43,589 nucleotides of DNA from a virus (taxonomy: Duplodnaviria; Caudoviricetes): positions 1-43,589 of IMG/VR virus record IMGVR_UViG_3300049139_000093. The stretch is one strand, 5' to 3'. This document shows, piece by piece, positions 18,989 to 25,647 of this stretch. How positions within the stretch are numbered: the first letter of the stretch is position 1; every line of letters begins with the position of its first letter. The notes beneath the pieces are model-generated. The model did not search any database, was not told the DNA's origin, and was given only the letters and a program-made list of their open reading frames with translations. A program made the translations under genes and the position numbers.

Positions 18989-19535
18989 TGCAAACGACCC
19001 TGAACGCTACGTGACGGCGATCGCCGCAGTCCTGACGCTGTACGATTTCGATCTCATGCGCGAAGTCACCGATCCGCGAACAGGGATCCAGAACACCGAA
19101 GAATTCATGACGTTCATGCCTCAGTCCGGCGAACTAAAACGATACTGCGACAAGGTGGCGGCTCATCGGGAGCGCATCGCCAAGATGGCTTCGTTGCCGA
19201 GGCCGGCGCCAGCGTCGCACCGCCTCGAGGCCCCGATCGCCCGGGACCCTGGATCGCTGGCGAACGTGTTCGTACCTCAAGGCCACGGCCGCTATGCGAA
19301 GCTGGTCGAATGGACGCAGACGGCCGATCCGAAGTTCTGGAAGTTCGGCCACTCGTCGGACAATCGGCCTGGCATCTGGGTTTCGCATGACGTGTGGGAC
19401 GGCGGCAGGGATACCGTCGGGCACAAGTTCGATTGGAAGAACCTGAAGCCGGAAGCGCGCGACCTGACGCTATCGCCGGCGGCGCGCGCGGCTACCGGCA
19501 TGCCGGAGCAGCAGGACGAGGAGGTGCCGTTCTGA
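18861..19535 (+). CDS. Putative helicase loader / replication protein
   Basis: Follows the initiator; FMP..GEL...C motif; ends EEVPF. Confidence 0.55.
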   Translation: MGDEQFTTQHETSQRESAPSTNQRLSYATQRAEVLFGSYRRGDANDPERYVTAIAAVLTLYDFDLMREVTDPRTGIQNTEEFMTFMPQSGELKRYCDKVAAHRERIAKMASLPRPAPASHRLEAPIARDPGSLANVFVPQGHGRYAKLVEWTQTADPKFWKFGHSSDNRPGIWVSHDVWDGGRDTVGHKFDWKNLKPEARDLTLSPAARAATGMPEQQDEEVPF

Positions 19536-20059
19536 CCAAGGTGCCAACCATCGACGTTCCTGGCTCCGGCGAGATTCTCGCCACGGTGCGGAGCTATCAG
19601 GATTTCGTCGACGCCTTCCGCGCGATCAAGGCGCGGCTGGGGCTGAGCAACGCAGTCTGCGACGAGCTCGGCGGCCTGACCGCGGGGCATACGGACAAGC
19701 TGATCGGTCCGACCGGGACCAAGAACCTTTCACCGATGGCGATCGATACGTTCTGCGCGCTGTTCGCGGTGCGGTTCGAAATGCGCATCGATCTCGAGCA
19801 GGCGGGACGGATGGCGGGCCGCTGGGAGGGTAGGGCAAGCGGGCGCATCCATGTGCCGGCGAGCCGCGTTAGCAAGGTGCTGATCGACAGGGTGCGCGTG
19901 CCGGTCATGCGTGAGTTATCCGCACGTCGGATGGAAAAGTTGACGGAACAGCAGCGGCAGGCGATCGCCCGCAAGGCTGCGACGGCAAGGTGGGCGAAGC
20001 AGAAGCGTCGGCGCCGACGTCGGCAAATCCGCGAAAAGGCGGTGGATGCTATCGGATAG
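19532..20059 (+). CDS. XRE-like HTH protein with a basic C-terminal tail
   Basis: LGLSNAVCDELGGLTAGHTDKL; GGAGG 7 nt before the CTG at 19532 (alternative start GTG 19541). Confidence 0.65.
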   Translation: MTKVPTIDVPGSGEILATVRSYQDFVDAFRAIKARLGLSNAVCDELGGLTAGHTDKLIGPTGTKNLSPMAIDTFCALFAVRFEMRIDLEQAGRMAGRWEGRASGRIHVPASRVSKVLIDRVRVPVMRELSARRMEKLTEQQRQAIARKAATARWAKQKRRRRRRQIREKAVDAIG

Positions 20060-20095
20060 CATCGGCCGGTCGCCACATCGGCCGCGGTAAGCAGT

Positions 20096-20305
20096 TTATC
20101 GGCATGCCGATCGGTCGAACCTGCGGCGCAGATACTCGGTGCGCGCGGCCTTCCAGTCGATGCCTTTGGCCCAATACCGCATAAGCTGCCGCGATACTCC
20201 GGCGAGCTCGGCGGCCTCGGCCGGTGTGCAAACGCCACGGGCCAGCATGCGGCGGGCTGCCTTGCGTGCCTGGTCCGTGCTATCGTCTGATGTTGCCTTG
20301 GTCAT
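20096..20305 (-). CDS. Small HTH protein, last gene of the ArdC cassette (Aca-like position)
   Basis: TPAEAAELAGVSRQLMRYW; CCGCGAGGA RBS. Confidence 0.8.
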   Translation of the reverse strand: MTKATSDDSTDQARKAARRMLARGVCTPAEAAELAGVSRQLMRYWAKGIDWKAARTEYLRRRFDRSACR

Positions 20306-20342
20306 CGGGTGTCCTCGCGGGCTTCGCTGGCTGGGGTAGCAA

Positions 20343-20368
20343 GGCCGCGGGGCGCCAACCCCGCGGCC
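20343..20368 (-). repeat. TTGGCG-loop hairpin, copy 4
   Basis: GGCCGCGGGG-TTGGCG-CCCCGCGGCC; CCGCGAGGA at 20320-20312. Confidence 0.85.
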
Positions 20369-20376
20369 ACGTTGTT

Positions 20377-20556
20377 TCAGATTAGGCGCTTCTCTGGCTC
20401 AATGACCATGATGCACGGGCCGATGTCGCCCTCGTACCAGAATCCGCATTGCCAAGGGCGCCGTCCGGCGTAGTGATAGATCGCAACCCGGCACTGAAAC
20501 TCGTTGGCAAGATCCTTCGCATAGCGGACGGCGTTTGCAAATTGACGTTCGGTCAT
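20377..20556 (-). CDS. 59-aa hypothetical protein
   Basis: GAGGTGG RBS before MTERQFANA. Confidence 0.7.
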   Translation of the reverse strand: MTERQFANAVRYAKDLANEFQCRVAIYHYAGRRPWQCGFWYEGDIGPCIMVIEPEKRLI

Positions 20557-20564
20557 GGTCCACC

Positions 20565-21434
20565 TCACGCTGCGATCGGCAGGGCTGCGGCGTTGGCCGC
20601 GTCCCTGAGATAGTTGGCTGCTGCCTGGGCCTTGCTCGCGGCGGTGAAGATGGCGCGGTTATCGGCCTTCAACACCTTCAGCCAGTGGTCCAGATATGAC
20701 GCTTGGTTGGCGTGCGCGTTGTCGAGGCCGAATTCAGCGCAAAGGAACGCGGCGCCGAGCTCGGCAACAAGCTCCTCCATCGCGTATGCGTCGACGTCGA
20801 AGCGGCCTTTAAGGTCGCGGTCCAGCCGTGACTTGTGGCCGGTCCAGTGCACCAGCTCATGGAAGGAGGCCGCGTAGTATTCCGGGCTGTCCTGGAATTC
20901 GGCAAATCGCGGCACGGTGACAAAGTCCTTGCTCGGCACGTAGCACGGTGCGCCGGCGCCTTCGCGGAAGTCCGCACCGGTTGCCGCAATGAAGTCGTCG
21001 GCAAGCCGCTGGCGCTGGGCCTGGTTCAAGGGCGCGGTGATCTCGCCCATGATGCGATCGGAAAGGCCTCCGCACTGCGCCACGTTAAAAACCGTGTACT
21101 GGCGCAGCATCGGGATCGTCTTGTCTTCGCCGGTCGCCTTATCGGTGATGTCCAACTGCTTGAAGAAATACAGCGGCATCCCGGTTTCGCCCTTGCGCAC
21201 GTGTCCGCCGGCGTCTTTCGCCTGCTTGAAGGTCAGAAAGCGCGGCCGCGACCAGCCACATTCCAGCGATGCCCAATAGAGCAACACGTTGATTCCGGAA
21301 TAGGGGCGATTGCTGACGGCGTTCATGGGCACCATGCTGCCGCTGGTCGACCAGCCTTTGACCCATGGCAGGGTGCCGGCCTCGAGCTGTGCAACGATCT
21401 TGTCGGTAACGGTCTGATACAGGTCTCGCTTCAT
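20565..21434 (-). CDS. ardC: ArdC-family anti-restriction protein (ssDNA-binding N-domain plus zincin-like domain)
   Basis: VTDKIVAQLEAG..PW...N....RPYSGIN...FLTFKQA..G.VRKGE...VFNVAQ; HELVHWTGH..RLDR; YA.EELVAELG. Confidence 0.92.
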   Translation of the reverse strand: MKRDLYQTVTDKIVAQLEAGTLPWVKGWSTSGSMVPMNAVSNRPYSGINVLLYWASLECGWSRPRFLTFKQAKDAGGHVRKGETGMPLYFFKQLDITDKATGEDKTIPMLRQYTVFNVAQCGGLSDRIMGEITAPLNQAQRQRLADDFIAATGADFREGAGAPCYVPSKDFVTVPRFAEFQDSPEYYAASFHELVHWTGHKSRLDRDLKGRFDVDAYAMEELVAELGAAFLCAEFGLDNAHANQASYLDHWLKVLKADNRAIFTAASKAQAAANYLRDAANAAALPIAA

Positions 21435-21441
21435 TGGTGGT

Positions 21442-21523
21442 TCCTCGCGGTTGTCGGGGACCGCGCCAACGGTCCCGCTACTGCTTTACGCCGGGTGAGC
21501 CTCGCGGCTGCCCGGCGTAAAGC
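21442..21523 (-). repeat. Leader element copy 3: GNRA stem, TTGGCG hairpin, AACCGCGAGGA
   Basis: GCTTTACGCCGGG-C-AGCC-GCGA-GGCT-CA-CCCGGCGTAAAGC, then GGGACCG-TTGGCG-CGGTCCC. Confidence 0.85.
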
Positions 21524-21536
21524 GATGGTGTGTCGG

Positions 21537-21716
21537 TCAGACTGGCTTGATGGTCCAAGCGTCGCCCCACTGGCCATTCTCGATCACGTAGCGGCGGCCG
21601 TCCTGGGTGCGGTGGTACTCGGCATAGCCGCTGCAGCCGGGATAGCCGAACGAGCTCGACCATTTCGCGTCGGCGGGGAGTTGTGCGGCTGCTTCGCTAT
21701 ACGTGCGGTAGGTCAT
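21537..21716 (-). CDS. 59-aa hypothetical protein
   Basis: MTYRTYSEAAAQLPADAKWSSSFG...; GAGG RBS. Confidence 0.7.
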   Translation of the reverse strand: MTYRTYSEAAAQLPADAKWSSSFGYPGCSGYAEYHRTQDGRRYVIENGQWGDAWTIKPV

Positions 21717-21724
21717 TGCCGGCC

Positions 21725-21808
21725 TCATGCGCATGCGAACGTGAGCAACAGCGCGGCCGCGAACACTGCGGCTTTGAAGGCGAGATAGGTGGGATTGAGA
21801 CTGTCCAT
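21725..21808 (-). CDS. 27-aa hydrophobic micropeptide (not in the ORF track)
   Basis: MDSLNPTYLAFKAAVFAAALLLTFACA; ATG 5 nt after the conserved AACCGCGAGGA. Confidence 0.7.
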   Translation of the reverse strand: MDSLNPTYLAFKAAVFAAALLLTFACA

Positions 21809-21813
21809 TGTGG

Positions 21814-21891
21814 TCCTCGCGGTTGGGAGACGGCGCCAACCGTCTCTGACGCCTTAAGGCCGGTAGGCTTTCGCCGCCGGCCGTAAGCGCG
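21814..21891 (-). repeat. Leader element copy 2: GNRA stem, TTGGCG hairpin, AACCGCGAGGA
   Basis: ..GGCCGG-C-GGC-GAAA-GCC-TA-CCGGCC.., then GAGACGG-TTGGCG-CCGTCTC. Confidence 0.85.
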
Positions 21892-21903
21892 ATGTGTGAG
21901 CGG

Positions 21904-22161
21904 CTAAGCGGGGATGAGGCAATAGCCGCAATCCATCCACACCTCGCGCATGCGGCGGGCGCTGACCGGGTAAGCGGATGGCGGGTAATACATTCCCATT
22001 TCGCCAACGGGCGCGTTGCTGGTCTCGGCGATGCCTTCGTGAATTCGGCAATAGATCGGACGCGTCGCGTCCATGAACGCCTTTGACATTGCTGCCGCTT
22101 CGTCGTCGGCGTGCGCTGTTGCCGTGCGTCCTGATGGGAATTGAACTTGAAAGATCGGCAT
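21904..22161 (-). CDS. 85-aa hypothetical protein, first gene of the cassette
   Basis: GAGGAG RBS directly after leader copy 1. Confidence 0.78.
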   Translation of the reverse strand: MPIFQVQFPSGRTATAHADDEAAAMSKAFMDATRPIYCRIHEGIAETSNAPVGEMGMYYPPSAYPVSARRMREVWMDCGYCLIPA

Positions 22162-22170
22162 GTTCGATGC

Positions 22171-22203
22171 TCCTCGCGGTTTGAACGCTGCGCCAACAGC
22201 GTT
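22171..22203 (-). repeat. Leader element copy 1: TTGGCG hairpin, AACCGCGAGGA
   Basis: AACGCTG-TTGGCG-CAGCGTT. Confidence 0.85.
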
Positions 22204-22275
22204 TGACGGATGACAAAATGCGCGCGGCCTAATCGTTTGTCAACGGTAAAAATACGAAATCGGCAAACTATTTTA
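22203..22275 (-). promoter_or_regulatory. Strong sigma70 promoter with an AT-rich UP-like region and operator-like repeats
   Basis: TTGACA(22243-22238)-N17-CATTTT(22220-22215); inverted TTGTCA-N3-GTMAA sites at 22203-22216 and 22237-22250. Confidence 0.8.
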
Positions 22276-22617
22276 TAAGCGCTTGATTGTGTTGCCTTTA
22301 TCGAGCCATTCCGATGTCTTGCGGGATGCAATTGCGCGCTGCTGCTGCTTGTTCGGCCGCCGGCCTCGAGGCTTGTCCTGCCTGATGCGCTCGGCGCGGT
22401 CGTGCTCTTTCGCAATAAAGGCGTCGCGCGCGGTGGCGATGTCGATGCCGGCCTCACGCAACCACCTGGCAATGGTCTGCCGCGGCACGGTTGCCACCAT
22501 CATGCCTTCGCGGATCGTGCGCAACACGCCGCGGCGATAGAGCATCTCGACGTGTGTTCGGAGCGGGTGACGAGGCGCTGGCATGCGTTCCACAGCTTGT
22601 AACTCTTCGTTTGCCAT
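22273..22617 (-). CDS. HTH protein paralogous to 20096-20305
   Basis: RGV..T..E....A.V.RQ....W....GID...AR shared with 20096-20305; start 22617 or 22584. Confidence 0.7.
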   Translation of the reverse strand: MANEELQAVERMPAPRHPLRTHVEMLYRRGVLRTIREGMMVATVPRQTIARWLREAGIDIATARDAFIAKEHDRAERIRQDKPRGRRPNKQQQRAIASRKTSEWLDKGNTIKRL

Positions 22618-22701
22618 CCGCAACGCACGCAAGGGCGCGTGAGCATCGCCGGCATCATCGAGCCGTCACCGCAACGCCAGCAATATCAATCACATGCGCG
22701 C

Positions 22702-22745
22702 GGTGCGTTGCTGGCATCGGCAATCCGGCGCCACAAACCCCGCGC
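22702..22745 (+). promoter_or_regulatory. Putative late promoter (GGTGCGTTGC) upstream of terS
   Basis: Exact motif copy. Confidence 0.6.
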
Positions 22746-22828
22746 GTCCCGCATCACGTGCGCGCCCGTCTTCCTTCCGCAGGGCGCAAAGCGACCGAGG
22801 ACCATGACGAAGGCCAAGGGCCGAGGAT

Positions 22829-23443
22829 ATGCAGGCCACAAGCACCGCCGTCACGGCTCAAGACGATAAGCAGCCATCCCGACAGGCAATCGAGGCCAAA
22901 ACCCGAAGCAAGCCCGGTGCAGTCACCGGCAAGATCGCCGCCGCGATCGATCACATGATCGAAGACGGCATGTTGTGGGACAAGGCCGCTCTGCACGTCG
23001 GTTTGACAGTCCGCGCAATGCGCTTAGCCATGCAGAAGCCGCATGTCGTCGCGTTCATCAAGACGAAGCGGGAGGTGTTCAGGGTTCACGCGAGCTCGGC
23101 GAACATTCGCAAGCTTGTCGATCTCCGCGACCAGACGGAGAACAAGGCCGCTGCGGTTTCTGCGATCAAAGTGCTCGAGCAGATGGGCGATGAGACCGCG
23201 CGCGGAGGCATCGCAGGCCGCGACGTTTCGCCAGGCTTCGTCATCCAGGTGAACGTGAATCAGCCTCCGAGCCATGCGCAGGTCGCATCACGCGGGCAGG
23301 TTTTGAACGCGGTGGCGAACGACAGCGAGCAACATCAATCGCTTAGCCACGAAACCGCACTCATGGGCCATGAGCGCGGCGCGACACAGGCCGATGAGGA
23401 CGTGCTTTGGATCGATGGCCGAAGCGAAGGCGATCCGAAATGA
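22829..23443 (+). CDS. Probable terminase small subunit
   Basis: N-terminal HTH-like region, helical core, PGFVIQVN tail; upstream of terL; start uncertain. Confidence 0.6.
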   Translation: MQATSTAVTAQDDKQPSRQAIEAKTRSKPGAVTGKIAAAIDHMIEDGMLWDKAALHVGLTVRAMRLAMQKPHVVAFIKTKREVFRVHASSANIRKLVDLRDQTENKAAAVSAIKVLEQMGDETARGGIAGRDVSPGFVIQVNVNQPPSHAQVASRGQVLNAVANDSEQHQSLSHETALMGHERGATQADEDVLWIDGRSEGDPK

Positions 23444-23875: not shown

Positions 23876-24070
23876 ATGAACAAGGTTGTTGCTGCGCTGG
23901 AGTGCTTTCTCGAGATGGCGCGGTCCGGGGAGATTAAGGGCGTTGTCATCGTTGCTTTGCATCAGGACGAGACGGTGAGTGGTTGGCGTTCCGGCGAGCA
24001 GGATTACCGGCTGACCGGGCTGCTGACGCAGATGATCCACGACCTTTGCGCGAAGCGGGTCGAAGGATGA
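23876..24070 (+). CDS. Hypothetical protein
   Basis: LE..L..ARSGEI.G motif; ATGA overlap with terL. Confidence 0.7.
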   Translation: MNKVVAALECFLEMARSGEIKGVVIVALHQDETVSGWRSGEQDYRLTGLLTQMIHDLCAKRVEG

Positions 24071-25647
24071 GCGGAAAGCCCGAGGCGCCGCGGGTCCGGC
24101 TGGATGAGCGCGGGCGGATTATCTACGAGCCGGACGGGGATCAGCTCACGCAGTTCGTGATGGACAATTCGCGGGTTGCGATCGTTGAGGGGCCGATCGG
24201 GTCGGGGAAGTCGAAGGGCGCGCGCATGCGGTTGTGGCGGCATGCGTGCGAGCAGGAGAAGTCGCCGCTGGATGGGCTGCGTCATTCGCGGTGGGGAGTG
24301 ATTCGCAACACGTATGCGGAGCTGAAGCAGTCGGTCGTGAAGGACTGGCTGGAGGATTTTCCGGAGCATCTTTACGGGCGGTTCACGTATTCGAAGCCGT
24401 TCGAGCACAACATTCGGGTCGGGGATGTGGCGCTGGAGGTGATCTTCATCGCGCTGGATAGCGACGAGGACATTTCGAAGCTGCGGTCGACGCAGTTCAC
24501 GGCGTTCTATTTCAACGAAGTGCAATATGCGTCGCGGGCGATGTTCATGGAGGCGCTGTCGCGCACGCCGCGATTTCCGTCTGCCGCGCACGGGCGCGCG
24601 ACGTGGAGCGGCGTGATTGCGGACATGAACTCGCCGGAGGAGGAGGACAACTGGATCGCGCTGATGCAGGGGCAGGTCGCGTTTCCTGCGCACTGGAGCG
24701 AGGAAGAGAAGGCGGAATATCGCTGGCCGGAGGAGGAGGGCTGGAAGTTCTTCCTGCAGCCGCCGGCGCTGCTCGAGGTGCTGGACGAGCGCGGGGCGGT
24801 GAAGGGGTATCGGGTCAATCCGAAGGCTGAGAATTCGAAGTGGCTGCAGCCGATCGCGCGCGGCGATGGGAGCTACCGGCCGTTCTATCTGGGCCAGGCC
24901 GTCGGCAAGTCGAAAGCGTGGATCGACAGCCGGCTGCTGAACAAGATCACGATCTATGCGGACGGCTCGCCGGTGTTTCCGCAGTTTCGGCCGGAACGGC
25001 ATGTCGCGAAGGAGATTTTGAAGCCGGTGCACGGGCAGCCGGTGGTGGTGGGGTTGGACTTCGGGCGTAACCCGGCCGCGGTGTTCCTGCAGGCGATCCA
25101 TGGTCGGGTCTTCGTGCAGTTCGAATTGCAGGGGTTCGACGTGTCGGCGCAGACGTTTGCGCCGATGGTGAAGCAGGAGATCGCGCGGCGGTTTCCTTCC
25201 TTCAAGCTGGAAGAGTTTCGATTTTTCGGGGATCCGAAGGGGCGAGACAAGGGGCAGGCGACGGACACGACGCCGTTCGAGGTTTTTGCGGCGCATGGGC
25301 TGAAGGTGAAGCCGGCGCCGGTGCGGCAGAACAACATCGGCGAGCGGCTGGCGGCGATCGACAATCTGCTCGAGCGGGCGCCGGGCGGCCTCGAGGCGCT
25401 GGTGATCAGTCAGGCGTGCCCGCGGCTGCGCATGGCGCTCACCGGAAAGTACGTGGTCGAGAAGAAGCCGGATTCGTCGGCGCGCGAGCCGAAGAAAGAC
25501 CAGTGGGCGGATTTGCCGGATGCGTTCGGCTACGGCGTGCTCGGCACCGGCGAGGGCTACGCGATGACGGGGCGGATGGCTCCGAACGCTGGCAAGCCGC
25601 AAGTGTCCGCGCGGCGCGGTCGCCGATCGCTCCGGAGGGTCGCGTGA
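24067..25647 (+). CDS. terL: Terminase large subunit
   Basis: Walker A GPIGSGKS, IRNTY.EL, Walker B FYFNE, DMNSP, nuclease GLDFG and D..DAFGY. Confidence 0.92.
   Translation: MSGKPEAPRVRLDERGRIIYEPDGDQLTQFVMDNSRVAIVEGPIGSGKSKGARMRLWRHACEQEKSPLDGLRHSRWGVIRNTYAELKQSVVKDWLEDFPEHLYGRFTYSKPFEHNIRVGDVALEVIFIALDSDEDISKLRSTQFTAFYFNEVQYASRAMFMEALSRTPRFPSAAHGRATWSGVIADMNSPEEEDNWIALMQGQVAFPAHWSEEEKAEYRWPEEEGWKFFLQPPALLEVLDERGAVKGYRVNPKAENSKWLQPIARGDGSYRPFYLGQAVGKSKAWIDSRLLNKITIYADGSPVFPQFRPERHVAKEILKPVHGQPVVVGLDFGRNPAAVFLQAIHGRVFVQFELQGFDVSAQTFAPMVKQEIARRFPSFKLEEFRFFGDPKGRDKGQATDTTPFEVFAAHGLKVKPAPVRQNNIGERLAAIDNLLERAPGGLEALVISQACPRLRMALTGKYVVEKKPDSSAREPKKDQWADLPDAFGYGVLGTGEGYAMTGRMAPNAGKPQVSARRGRRSLRRVA

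Follow-up and report, generated by a model that had tools for sequence, protein, structure and literature searches.

In a tailed-phage genome of 43,589 nt (Duplodnaviria; Caudoviricetes; IMG/VR record IMGVR_UViG_3300049139_000093, positions 1 to 43,589; hereafter the window), a minus-strand cassette of small genes and ardC, the gene of an antirestriction protein, carries a repeated leader: a variable stem with a fixed UUGGCG loop, followed by CCGCGAGGA. Sequence comparison indicates that this leader is real and conserved, and that the cassette is a variant of the regulation known from anti-CRISPR-associated (Aca) proteins, with a constancy of the RNA that this scheme leaves unexplained. By analogy, the cassette most plausibly works by the logic of Aca2. 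We propose an Aca2-like regulon with cargo other than anti-CRISPR (Acr) proteins, in which a terminal helix-turn-helix (HTH) protein would repress at the DNA and would also read the RNA leader, and we give this whole model a probability of roughly 0.45. Its operon-level part, an early counter-defence array repressed at the DNA by the terminal HTH protein, appears highly probable. The probable role of the leader is to adjust a burst of counter-defence proteins early in infection.

The leader recurs in phages with three terminase families

Four copies of the leader lie in the cassette, ahead of an 85-aa gene, a 27/59-aa gene pair, ardC with a second 59-aa gene, and the terminal HTH gene. The pattern GTTGGCGC-N-CCGCGAGGA has 4 matches in the 43.6 kb, all within 20312–22197, and 0 in 100 shuffles. 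Every copy is predicted to form a hairpin around TTGGCG, with stem sequences that differ between copies. A covariance model run over the window genome gave nothing further convincing beyond the cassette copies. Rfam yielded no match at gathering score (window 19500–23300, best E 0.69; 12 loci gave one tRNA only), and the motif was likewise not found in the literature searched.

As the original prediction had anticipated, the family extends beyond this phage; it comprises the window and 24 other loci, in phages with three terminase families. The scans of viral, metagenome and genome collections left the stem unspecified, and the 24 loci are those that remain after duplicate removal; among them, three match contigs of one metagenome-assembled genome (MAG), and L291/L188 and L303/L142 are close relatives. 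Leader-bearing relatives were located in Rhodoplanes tepidamans and in an alphaproteobacterial, a proteobacterial and a Thermomicrobiales MAG, and the leader phages are likely alphaproteobacterial soil phages. In the larger viral records searched, stem-bearing copies clustered in one array.

Across 37 distinct hairpins, stem covariation was 0.958, versus 0.216 when shuffled; 85% of cells were paired, 7/7 pairs showed two-sided changes, and all four Watson-Crick types were represented among the loop-closing pairs. Since these 37 rows were largely picked for possessing a stem, the fairer test is the stem count among the 271 distinct matches to the stem-unspecified pattern: 231 had 0–3 Watson-Crick pairs, 4 had exactly 4, and 36 had 5–11. 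At the inner four stem pairs, 8 of the 11 non-canonical cells were G-U, a bias that fits a single-strand (RNA) element.

A promoter-anchored scan without a loop requirement uncovered the variant loop UUGCCG, and a UUGCCG pattern scan found stems in 5 of 37 distinct matches. The loop variant is uniform inside each array though stems vary, with UUGCCG uniform within L343 and L348. A pseudoknot between the loop and CCGCG was dismissed because the loop shifts to UUGCCG without a matching change and linker length is unrelated to stem length (rho 0.03, n 43). CAACCGCGAGGA alone is not a specific marker, with a hairpin in 11 of 108 loop-free matches versus 12% in controls, and a match in Pseudomonas phage Y2 falls in an apparent coding region.

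Some sites lie at the edge of the family. The first leaders of L331, L334, L341, L344, L345 and L356, which also came from the promoter-anchored scan, share ACCGCGAGGA, have multi-hairpin 5' structures and precede other cargo; they may be a sister motif and are not counted as members. A high-GC provirus (L353:4990-5060) has a promoter, a hairpin with an AACGA loop and ACCGCGAGGA, possibly as a distant variant. Two leader probes found no real match in PLSDB. No convincing chromosomal leader copy was seen among the 11 best non-prophage matches in 150 Rhodoplanes-family genomes (45 candidates scored per genome). The one possible case, L546:1470-1535, lies in a chromosomal 3' untranslated region (UTR), where a UUGGCG hairpin occurs together with ACAGCGAGGA and a terminator; it may be chance.

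Short and long forms of the leader

Short leaders often stand just behind a promoter. Of 45 short leaders, 23 had a promoter-like site 10–26 nt before the loop; so did 19 of 25 first leaders and 1.9% of random positions, and none of 10 long forms did. The thresholds were relaxed after the initial setting gave 10/45 short leaders. The hairpin begins ~5 nt past the predicted start site and is followed by an A/C-rich linker of 2–10 nt and then the Shine-Dalgarno (SD) sequence. In short leaders, GAGGA lies 5–10 nt ahead of the start codon, and the leader overlaps the ribosome-binding site of the cargo gene. In the window, short leader 1 (22168–22205, minus strand) has a 7-bp stem, the UUGGCG loop and AACCGCGAGGA, which contains the SD; short leaders 2 and 3 follow on the same strand at 21811–21848 and 21439–21478.

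The fourth copy (20312–20368, minus strand), originally taken for the same leader, is instead a distinct long form with a 10-bp stem, the UUGGCG loop, 32 nt and then CCGCGAGGA. Throughout the family, the long form is the last copy of an array, with a stem of ~10–13 bp followed after 32–38 nt by CCGCGAGG. Directly behind 10 of 12 long forms is an HTH gene, while the other 2 close arrays without one, and all 10 terminal HTH genes found have a long form. When CCGCGAGG was not required by the scan, 7 of 8 distinct UUGGCG stems of at least 10 bp still carried it 32–38 nt downstream. In 9 of the 10 HTH-preceding long forms it lies 16–61 nt from the start codon, with a separate purine stretch before the start; since it is kept there though it is not the ribosome-binding site, it is kept for a reason beyond ribosome binding. 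Its GCGA loop is predicted closed (P > 0.6) in 10 of 12 long forms, versus a median of 0.04 in the 45 short leaders. We infer that the leader element is likely a two-loop RNA site. Minimal cassettes consisting of a promoter, a leader, a 37-aa gene and a long form, with no HTH gene, were seen at L303:5800-6100 and L142:4950-5350, where they sit between the terminase large subunit gene (terL) and a protease-capsid gene, like a moron remnant.

The operator follows the regulator and the leader stays constant

All open reading frames (ORFs) of the cassette were found on the minus strand where the original prediction had placed them, and the architecture it described (HTH-A, promoter/operator, leader-led small genes, ArdC, HTH-B) is correct for this phage. 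The cassette ends, as had been proposed, in an HTH gene with a matching operator. HTH-B (20096–20305, minus strand; 69 aa) gave a weak HTH match (HTH_17, E 7e-4, below cut-off). Its predicted fold is a four-helix HTH (predicted local distance difference test 88), fold searches returned generic HTH matches only (best Z 4.9, no specific neighbour), and a homologue search found 1 other protein. The terminal HTH proteins of the family form three BLASTP groups, with E mostly 2e-7 or better within groups and 2e-5 or worse between them; HTH-B belongs to group i, and L535 was assigned to group iii by eye. In two phages, related CxxC..H..D proteins follow the group-iii HTH (L164:8072-8656 and L255:10635-11072).

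The promoter, which had been called strong, is present in the sequence as a predicted sigma70-like TTGACA-17-CATTTT (22215–22243, minus strand; -35 TTGACA at 22243–22238, 17-nt spacer, -10 CATTTT at 22220–22215); because a strict promoter scan did not list it, its strength is something we only infer. The palindrome TTKWC-N4-GTMAA (operator A) has exactly 2 matches in the window, versus 0.14 expected: site O2 (22237–22250) covers the -35 box, and site O1 (22203–22216) covers the -10 box and the predicted start site. The same palindrome occurs at 4/4 group-i HTH loci and at L348, and at 0/19 others. A different palindrome, GGGTR-N-YACCC, occurs at both group-iii loci tested and at four loci whose HTH gene lies off the fragment. 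Both patterns were derived from these same loci, with the -35 site of the window (O2) kept out of the derivation. At the sequence level, the inverted repeat overlapping the promoter tracks the regulator group; the DNA operator shifts with the HTH group, and the RNA leader remains constant.

Upstream of the promoter lies HTH-A (22273–22632, minus strand; 119 aa), a paralogue of HTH-B with a basic C-terminal tail and no evident SD, which we regard as accessory. Library profile searches gave it no family match, and it aligns to HTH-B and relatives with E of 2e-4 to 2e-8. Bracketing of the cassette by an HTH pair had been put forward as a trait of the system; beyond the window, an upstream HTH of the A type came to notice only in L158, and the pair is therefore not the conserved unit.

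Proposed mechanism

The general DNA-plus-RNA scheme is already published for Aca1 and Aca2 (PMC13551039). As reported there, Aca2 binds two hairpins in the 5' UTR and blocks translation, RNA motifs also lie between genes, and several operons can be controlled. The cassette shares with acr-aca2 and acr-aca1 operons, as presented there, a promoter-overlapping palindrome, a hairpin right after the start site, small genes, a terminal HTH, intergenic RNA motifs, several operons per regulator and cargo of the PAPS-reductase type. The ZF40 probe of PMC13551039 has UGGC in the loop of its first hairpin and CC..CGAGGA at the ribosome-binding site, a partial likeness to the leader; this comparison with Aca2 was made by eye and covers that probe rather than consensus motifs. 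The cassette differs in that no acr was found, HTH-B shows no match to DUF1870, the loop is a UUGSCG hexaloop, and three HTH groups go with a single RNA element. Neither a dedicated long form ahead of the HTH gene nor a head-to-head position with the terminase small subunit gene (terS) is described in the passages of PMC13551039 on which we draw, and its main text mentions neither ArdC nor terminase.

In the mechanism that we favor, a promoter would drive the array of small variable genes and ardC, with the HTH gene last. HTH-B would repress this promoter at the two predicted palindromic sites, O1 and O2, and would also bind the two-loop RNA site in each leader, presumably the UUGGCG hairpin plus a CC-GCGA-GG mini-hairpin, thereby cutting translation after the early burst. 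Folding predictions leave the mini-hairpin of short leaders open, with the SD inside it, and binding would then close it. For the long form they mostly show both hairpins already formed, and the SD is usually outside them; this form would thus serve as a sink or sensor setting the repressor level. The short/long pair suggests a timing of the repressor gene relative to its cargo. For the HTH protein as RNA reader speak its being the only gene common to complete arrays, the tie between long form and HTH gene, the weak likeness of one group-ii HTH, that of L225, to Aca2 (E 0.013) and the partial resemblance to the ZF40 probe.

Several points weigh against this mechanism. Three HTH groups and two or more distinct operator types go with one and the same RNA element, whereas the RNA motifs reported in PMC13551039 track Aca1 and Aca2 phylogeny; in that paper, Aca1 binds one hairpin with no translational silencing observed, and no RNA binding by Aca10 or Aca12 was seen. 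Pfam, phmmer and fold searches gave no DUF1870/Aca2 match for HTH-B. In two long forms, those of the window (P 0.02) and L255 (P 0.08), the GCGA mini-hairpin is predicted open, and the window copy also serves as the SD of HTH-B. L303 and L142 retain both forms with no HTH behind them. Named antirestriction proteins make up 3 of 73 cargo proteins (a raw count, without a background control for enrichment), and no known Acr was found in the window or in the relatives' cargo, of which 64 of 73 proteins were scanned in Pfam and/or PHROGs and the other 9 are homologous to scanned proteins, in libraries that cover only some Acrs. Finally, the search patterns themselves account in part for the invariance of the two sequence motifs.

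Alternatively, a host factor may read the RNA. The HTH protein would then act on DNA only, and the RNA element would be a self-acting or host-read module that boosts cargo expression, such as a 5' stabiliser, a translation enhancer or a site for RNA polymerase, a Nus factor or some other RNA-binding protein of the host; the long form would set a lower or later repressor level. This we consider a serious possibility, although we lean against it. It would account for an RNA that does not change across the three HTH groups, two or more operator types and three terminase families. A repressive site recognised by a phage protein would be expected to diversify and so evade resident prophages. The host-factor reading also suits the placement of hairpin, linker and SD immediately past the predicted start site, and the HTH-less cassettes (L303, L142) that keep the leader. 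However, a plain stabiliser needs neither fixed loops nor CCGCGAGG kept far from the start codon, the Rhodoplanes-family search described above gave no convincing chromosomal copies among its best matches, and the loop variant is uniform within each array. A broader version appears to us somewhat unlikely: a portable RNA module with two forms, recognised by a host factor and not by the phage repressor, and common to unrelated phages of Alphaproteobacteria, would control a terminase-adjacent counter-defence hotspot in which repressor and operator are swapped and the RNA is fixed, and the leader would mark some 50 unknown anti-defence families.

If the HTH protein does read the leader, Aca-type DNA-plus-RNA control would extend to antirestriction cargo, in what are likely alphaproteobacterial soil phages. 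One motif with three regulator groups and two loop variants offers a natural test of the identity of the RNA reader, and the leader may serve as a sequence landmark that points to candidate anti-defence genes in hosts for which few have been described.

Cargo and the proposed recombination of units

The cargo had been expected to be small and variable, and it is: 73 proteins from 22 loci fall into 58 families, 48 of them singletons, with a median length of ~86 aa (the L168 row was left out as mis-framed). Named members are ArdC (twice), ArdA (once), a PAPS reductase, two methyltransferase-domain proteins, DUF932, an amidoligase, a gamma-glutamyl cyclotransferase, a ParB-type HTH domain, DUF6011 and DUF2958. 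In the window, the first cargo gene is the 85-aa ORF (21904–22161, minus strand), which is without family and for which atlas search scores were all < 0.9. On the same strand follow a 27-aa hydrophobic ORF (21725–21808), a 59-aa ORF (21537–21716) whose L309 homologue sits leader-proximal, ardC, and a second 59-aa ORF without family (20377–20556).

ArdC (20565–21434, minus strand; 289 aa) is full length. It combines an ssDNA-binding ArdC-N domain with a zincin domain (PF08401 and PF18818), keeps the metal-binding residues, with the HExxH motif as HELVH and a downstream EE, and matches R388 ArdC over its length at E 1.2e-64. In L348, a leader stands directly ahead of that phage's own ArdC. The ArdC of R388/pSa (PDB 6I89; PMC7213743) is likewise a two-domain protein with HExxH and two glutamates. 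It is required in recipient cells, as would suit a gene expressed early. The present protein differs in being encoded by a dsDNA phage; ArdC is also known in phiCbK-like phages.

PMC8708921 and PMC6294495 describe plasmid establishment regulons (EGeRS of p576/pLS20 and CUP-ArdK of pKM101) with elements > 400 bp, as in EGeRS1 and CUP, or promoters bound by a repressor, a ribbon-helix-helix protein. These have in common with the cassette that ardC and variable anti-defence genes lie behind repeated elements and are expressed transiently until a repressor accumulates. They differ from the ~40-nt leaders in tailed phages seen here by having 400–600 bp repeats on a conjugative plasmid.

According to the original prediction, the array is built of standardised leader-plus-gene units that could be swapped by recombination at the leaders. 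The leaders would then be DNA-level recombination sites, either attC-like hairpins or short homology. The great variability of the cargo would suit such exchange, as would the occurrence of similar cassettes in unrelated phage backbones at three positions near terminase genes. The units are not fixed, though, because 6 of the 10 multi-member cargo families occur leader-proximal in one phage and deeper in the unit in another, and swapping at the leaders is not borne out either: the stems are too dissimilar for long homology, and the exact homology between leaders amounts to two blocks of ~6 and 11 nt. The G-U bias and the fixed distances to start site and start codon fit RNA, and no recombinase gene was seen within the arrays examined. 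On this evidence, recombination at the leaders is very improbable.

Position beside the terminase genes

The cassettes of relatives adjoin terminase genes, as had been proposed. Among the 21 flanked loci, 13 are head-to-head upstream of terS (identified by family match in 9 and by its place ahead of terL in 4), 2 immediately precede terL, 3 lie after terL, and 3, all from one MAG, have no terminase in view. The terL genes at leader loci belong to phrog_2, 9 and 15. As a rule, DNA packaging begins close to terS, and the end that is packaged last is the first to enter. By this rule, the 13 cassettes head-to-head with terS would enter early, promoter first, and the other 5 would not.

The cassettes of L255 and L538 include methyltransferase and ParB-type genes; they are situated between terS and terL but on the strand opposite to these, and the terS of L255 is beyond the cassette. 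In an unrelated phage (L121:4870-7600), ArdC is head-to-head with terS, and its small genes are separated by another type of repeat, which has its own promoter-like palindrome; the UUGGCG leader is absent. The terS-side site is therefore a hotspot beyond the UUGGCG motif.

Long stems ahead of internal leaders

Two GNRA-capped stems of 17–18 pairs directly precede leaders 2 and 3 in the window (z -1.8 and -6.5). Stem A (21850–21891, minus strand) has a GAAA tetraloop and was found only in the window phage; stem B (21483–21523, minus strand) has a GCGA tetraloop and resembles stem A. The early region of T7 consists of small host-takeover genes separated by long stems cut by RNase III, and presumably enters first. 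The window phage differs from T7 in being temperate, in lacking its own RNA polymerase, in the lack of conservation of its stems and in having a repressor and operators. It had been suggested that the stems punctuate the cassette in the same way; RNase III would then cut the early transcript into cistrons, each beginning with a protective leader hairpin. The two window stems and, at 7 of 15 internal promoter-less leaders, an upstream stem with z of -2 or lower would agree with this. The other 8 have no such stem, and the stem sequences are not conserved: a search for homologues gave 13 pattern matches in IMG/VR, none of them real. Many relatives use a new promoter instead, and cleavage would leave the fixed loops and the long form unexplained. 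Punctuation by RNase III is improbable and is not a feature of the family, and the long stems may be a local add-on in the window phage. Intrinsic terminators were also rejected: no sense-strand U-tract lies behind the long stems, and the long-form hairpin is terminator-like only on the plus strand. Elsewhere, a long stem (GAUUGCAG...CGGCAAUCCUGCCG), not in Rfam, is common to L348:1640-1700 and L268:235-295, where it stands before internal leaders.

The window phage and neighboring genes

The window is a circular assembly with a 127-nt terminal repeat and a complete virus record. Its genes include an integrase, a repressor, a replication initiator, a terminase large subunit, a T7-type portal and internal virion proteins, which mark the phage as temperate and podovirus-like. 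Soil metagenome runs contain it, with 0.39 and 0.57 of its words in two studies other than the possible source; no RNA runs are listed among the matching sequencing runs, and contigs from four soil runs cover the phage patchily, with no joint within the cassette. Divergent from the cassette lies a probable terS (22829–23443, plus strand), with a weak Terminase_2 lead and E 8e-5 to the terS of L375, itself assigned to phrog_2538; terL was placed at 23983–25647 by profile search. On the other side, a convergent gene (19394–20059, plus strand) ends in a basic QxxRxIAxK..W stretch that resembles the tail of HTH-A (22273–22340, minus strand), and by eye, similar genes flank the cassettes of L309, L225, L375 and L162.

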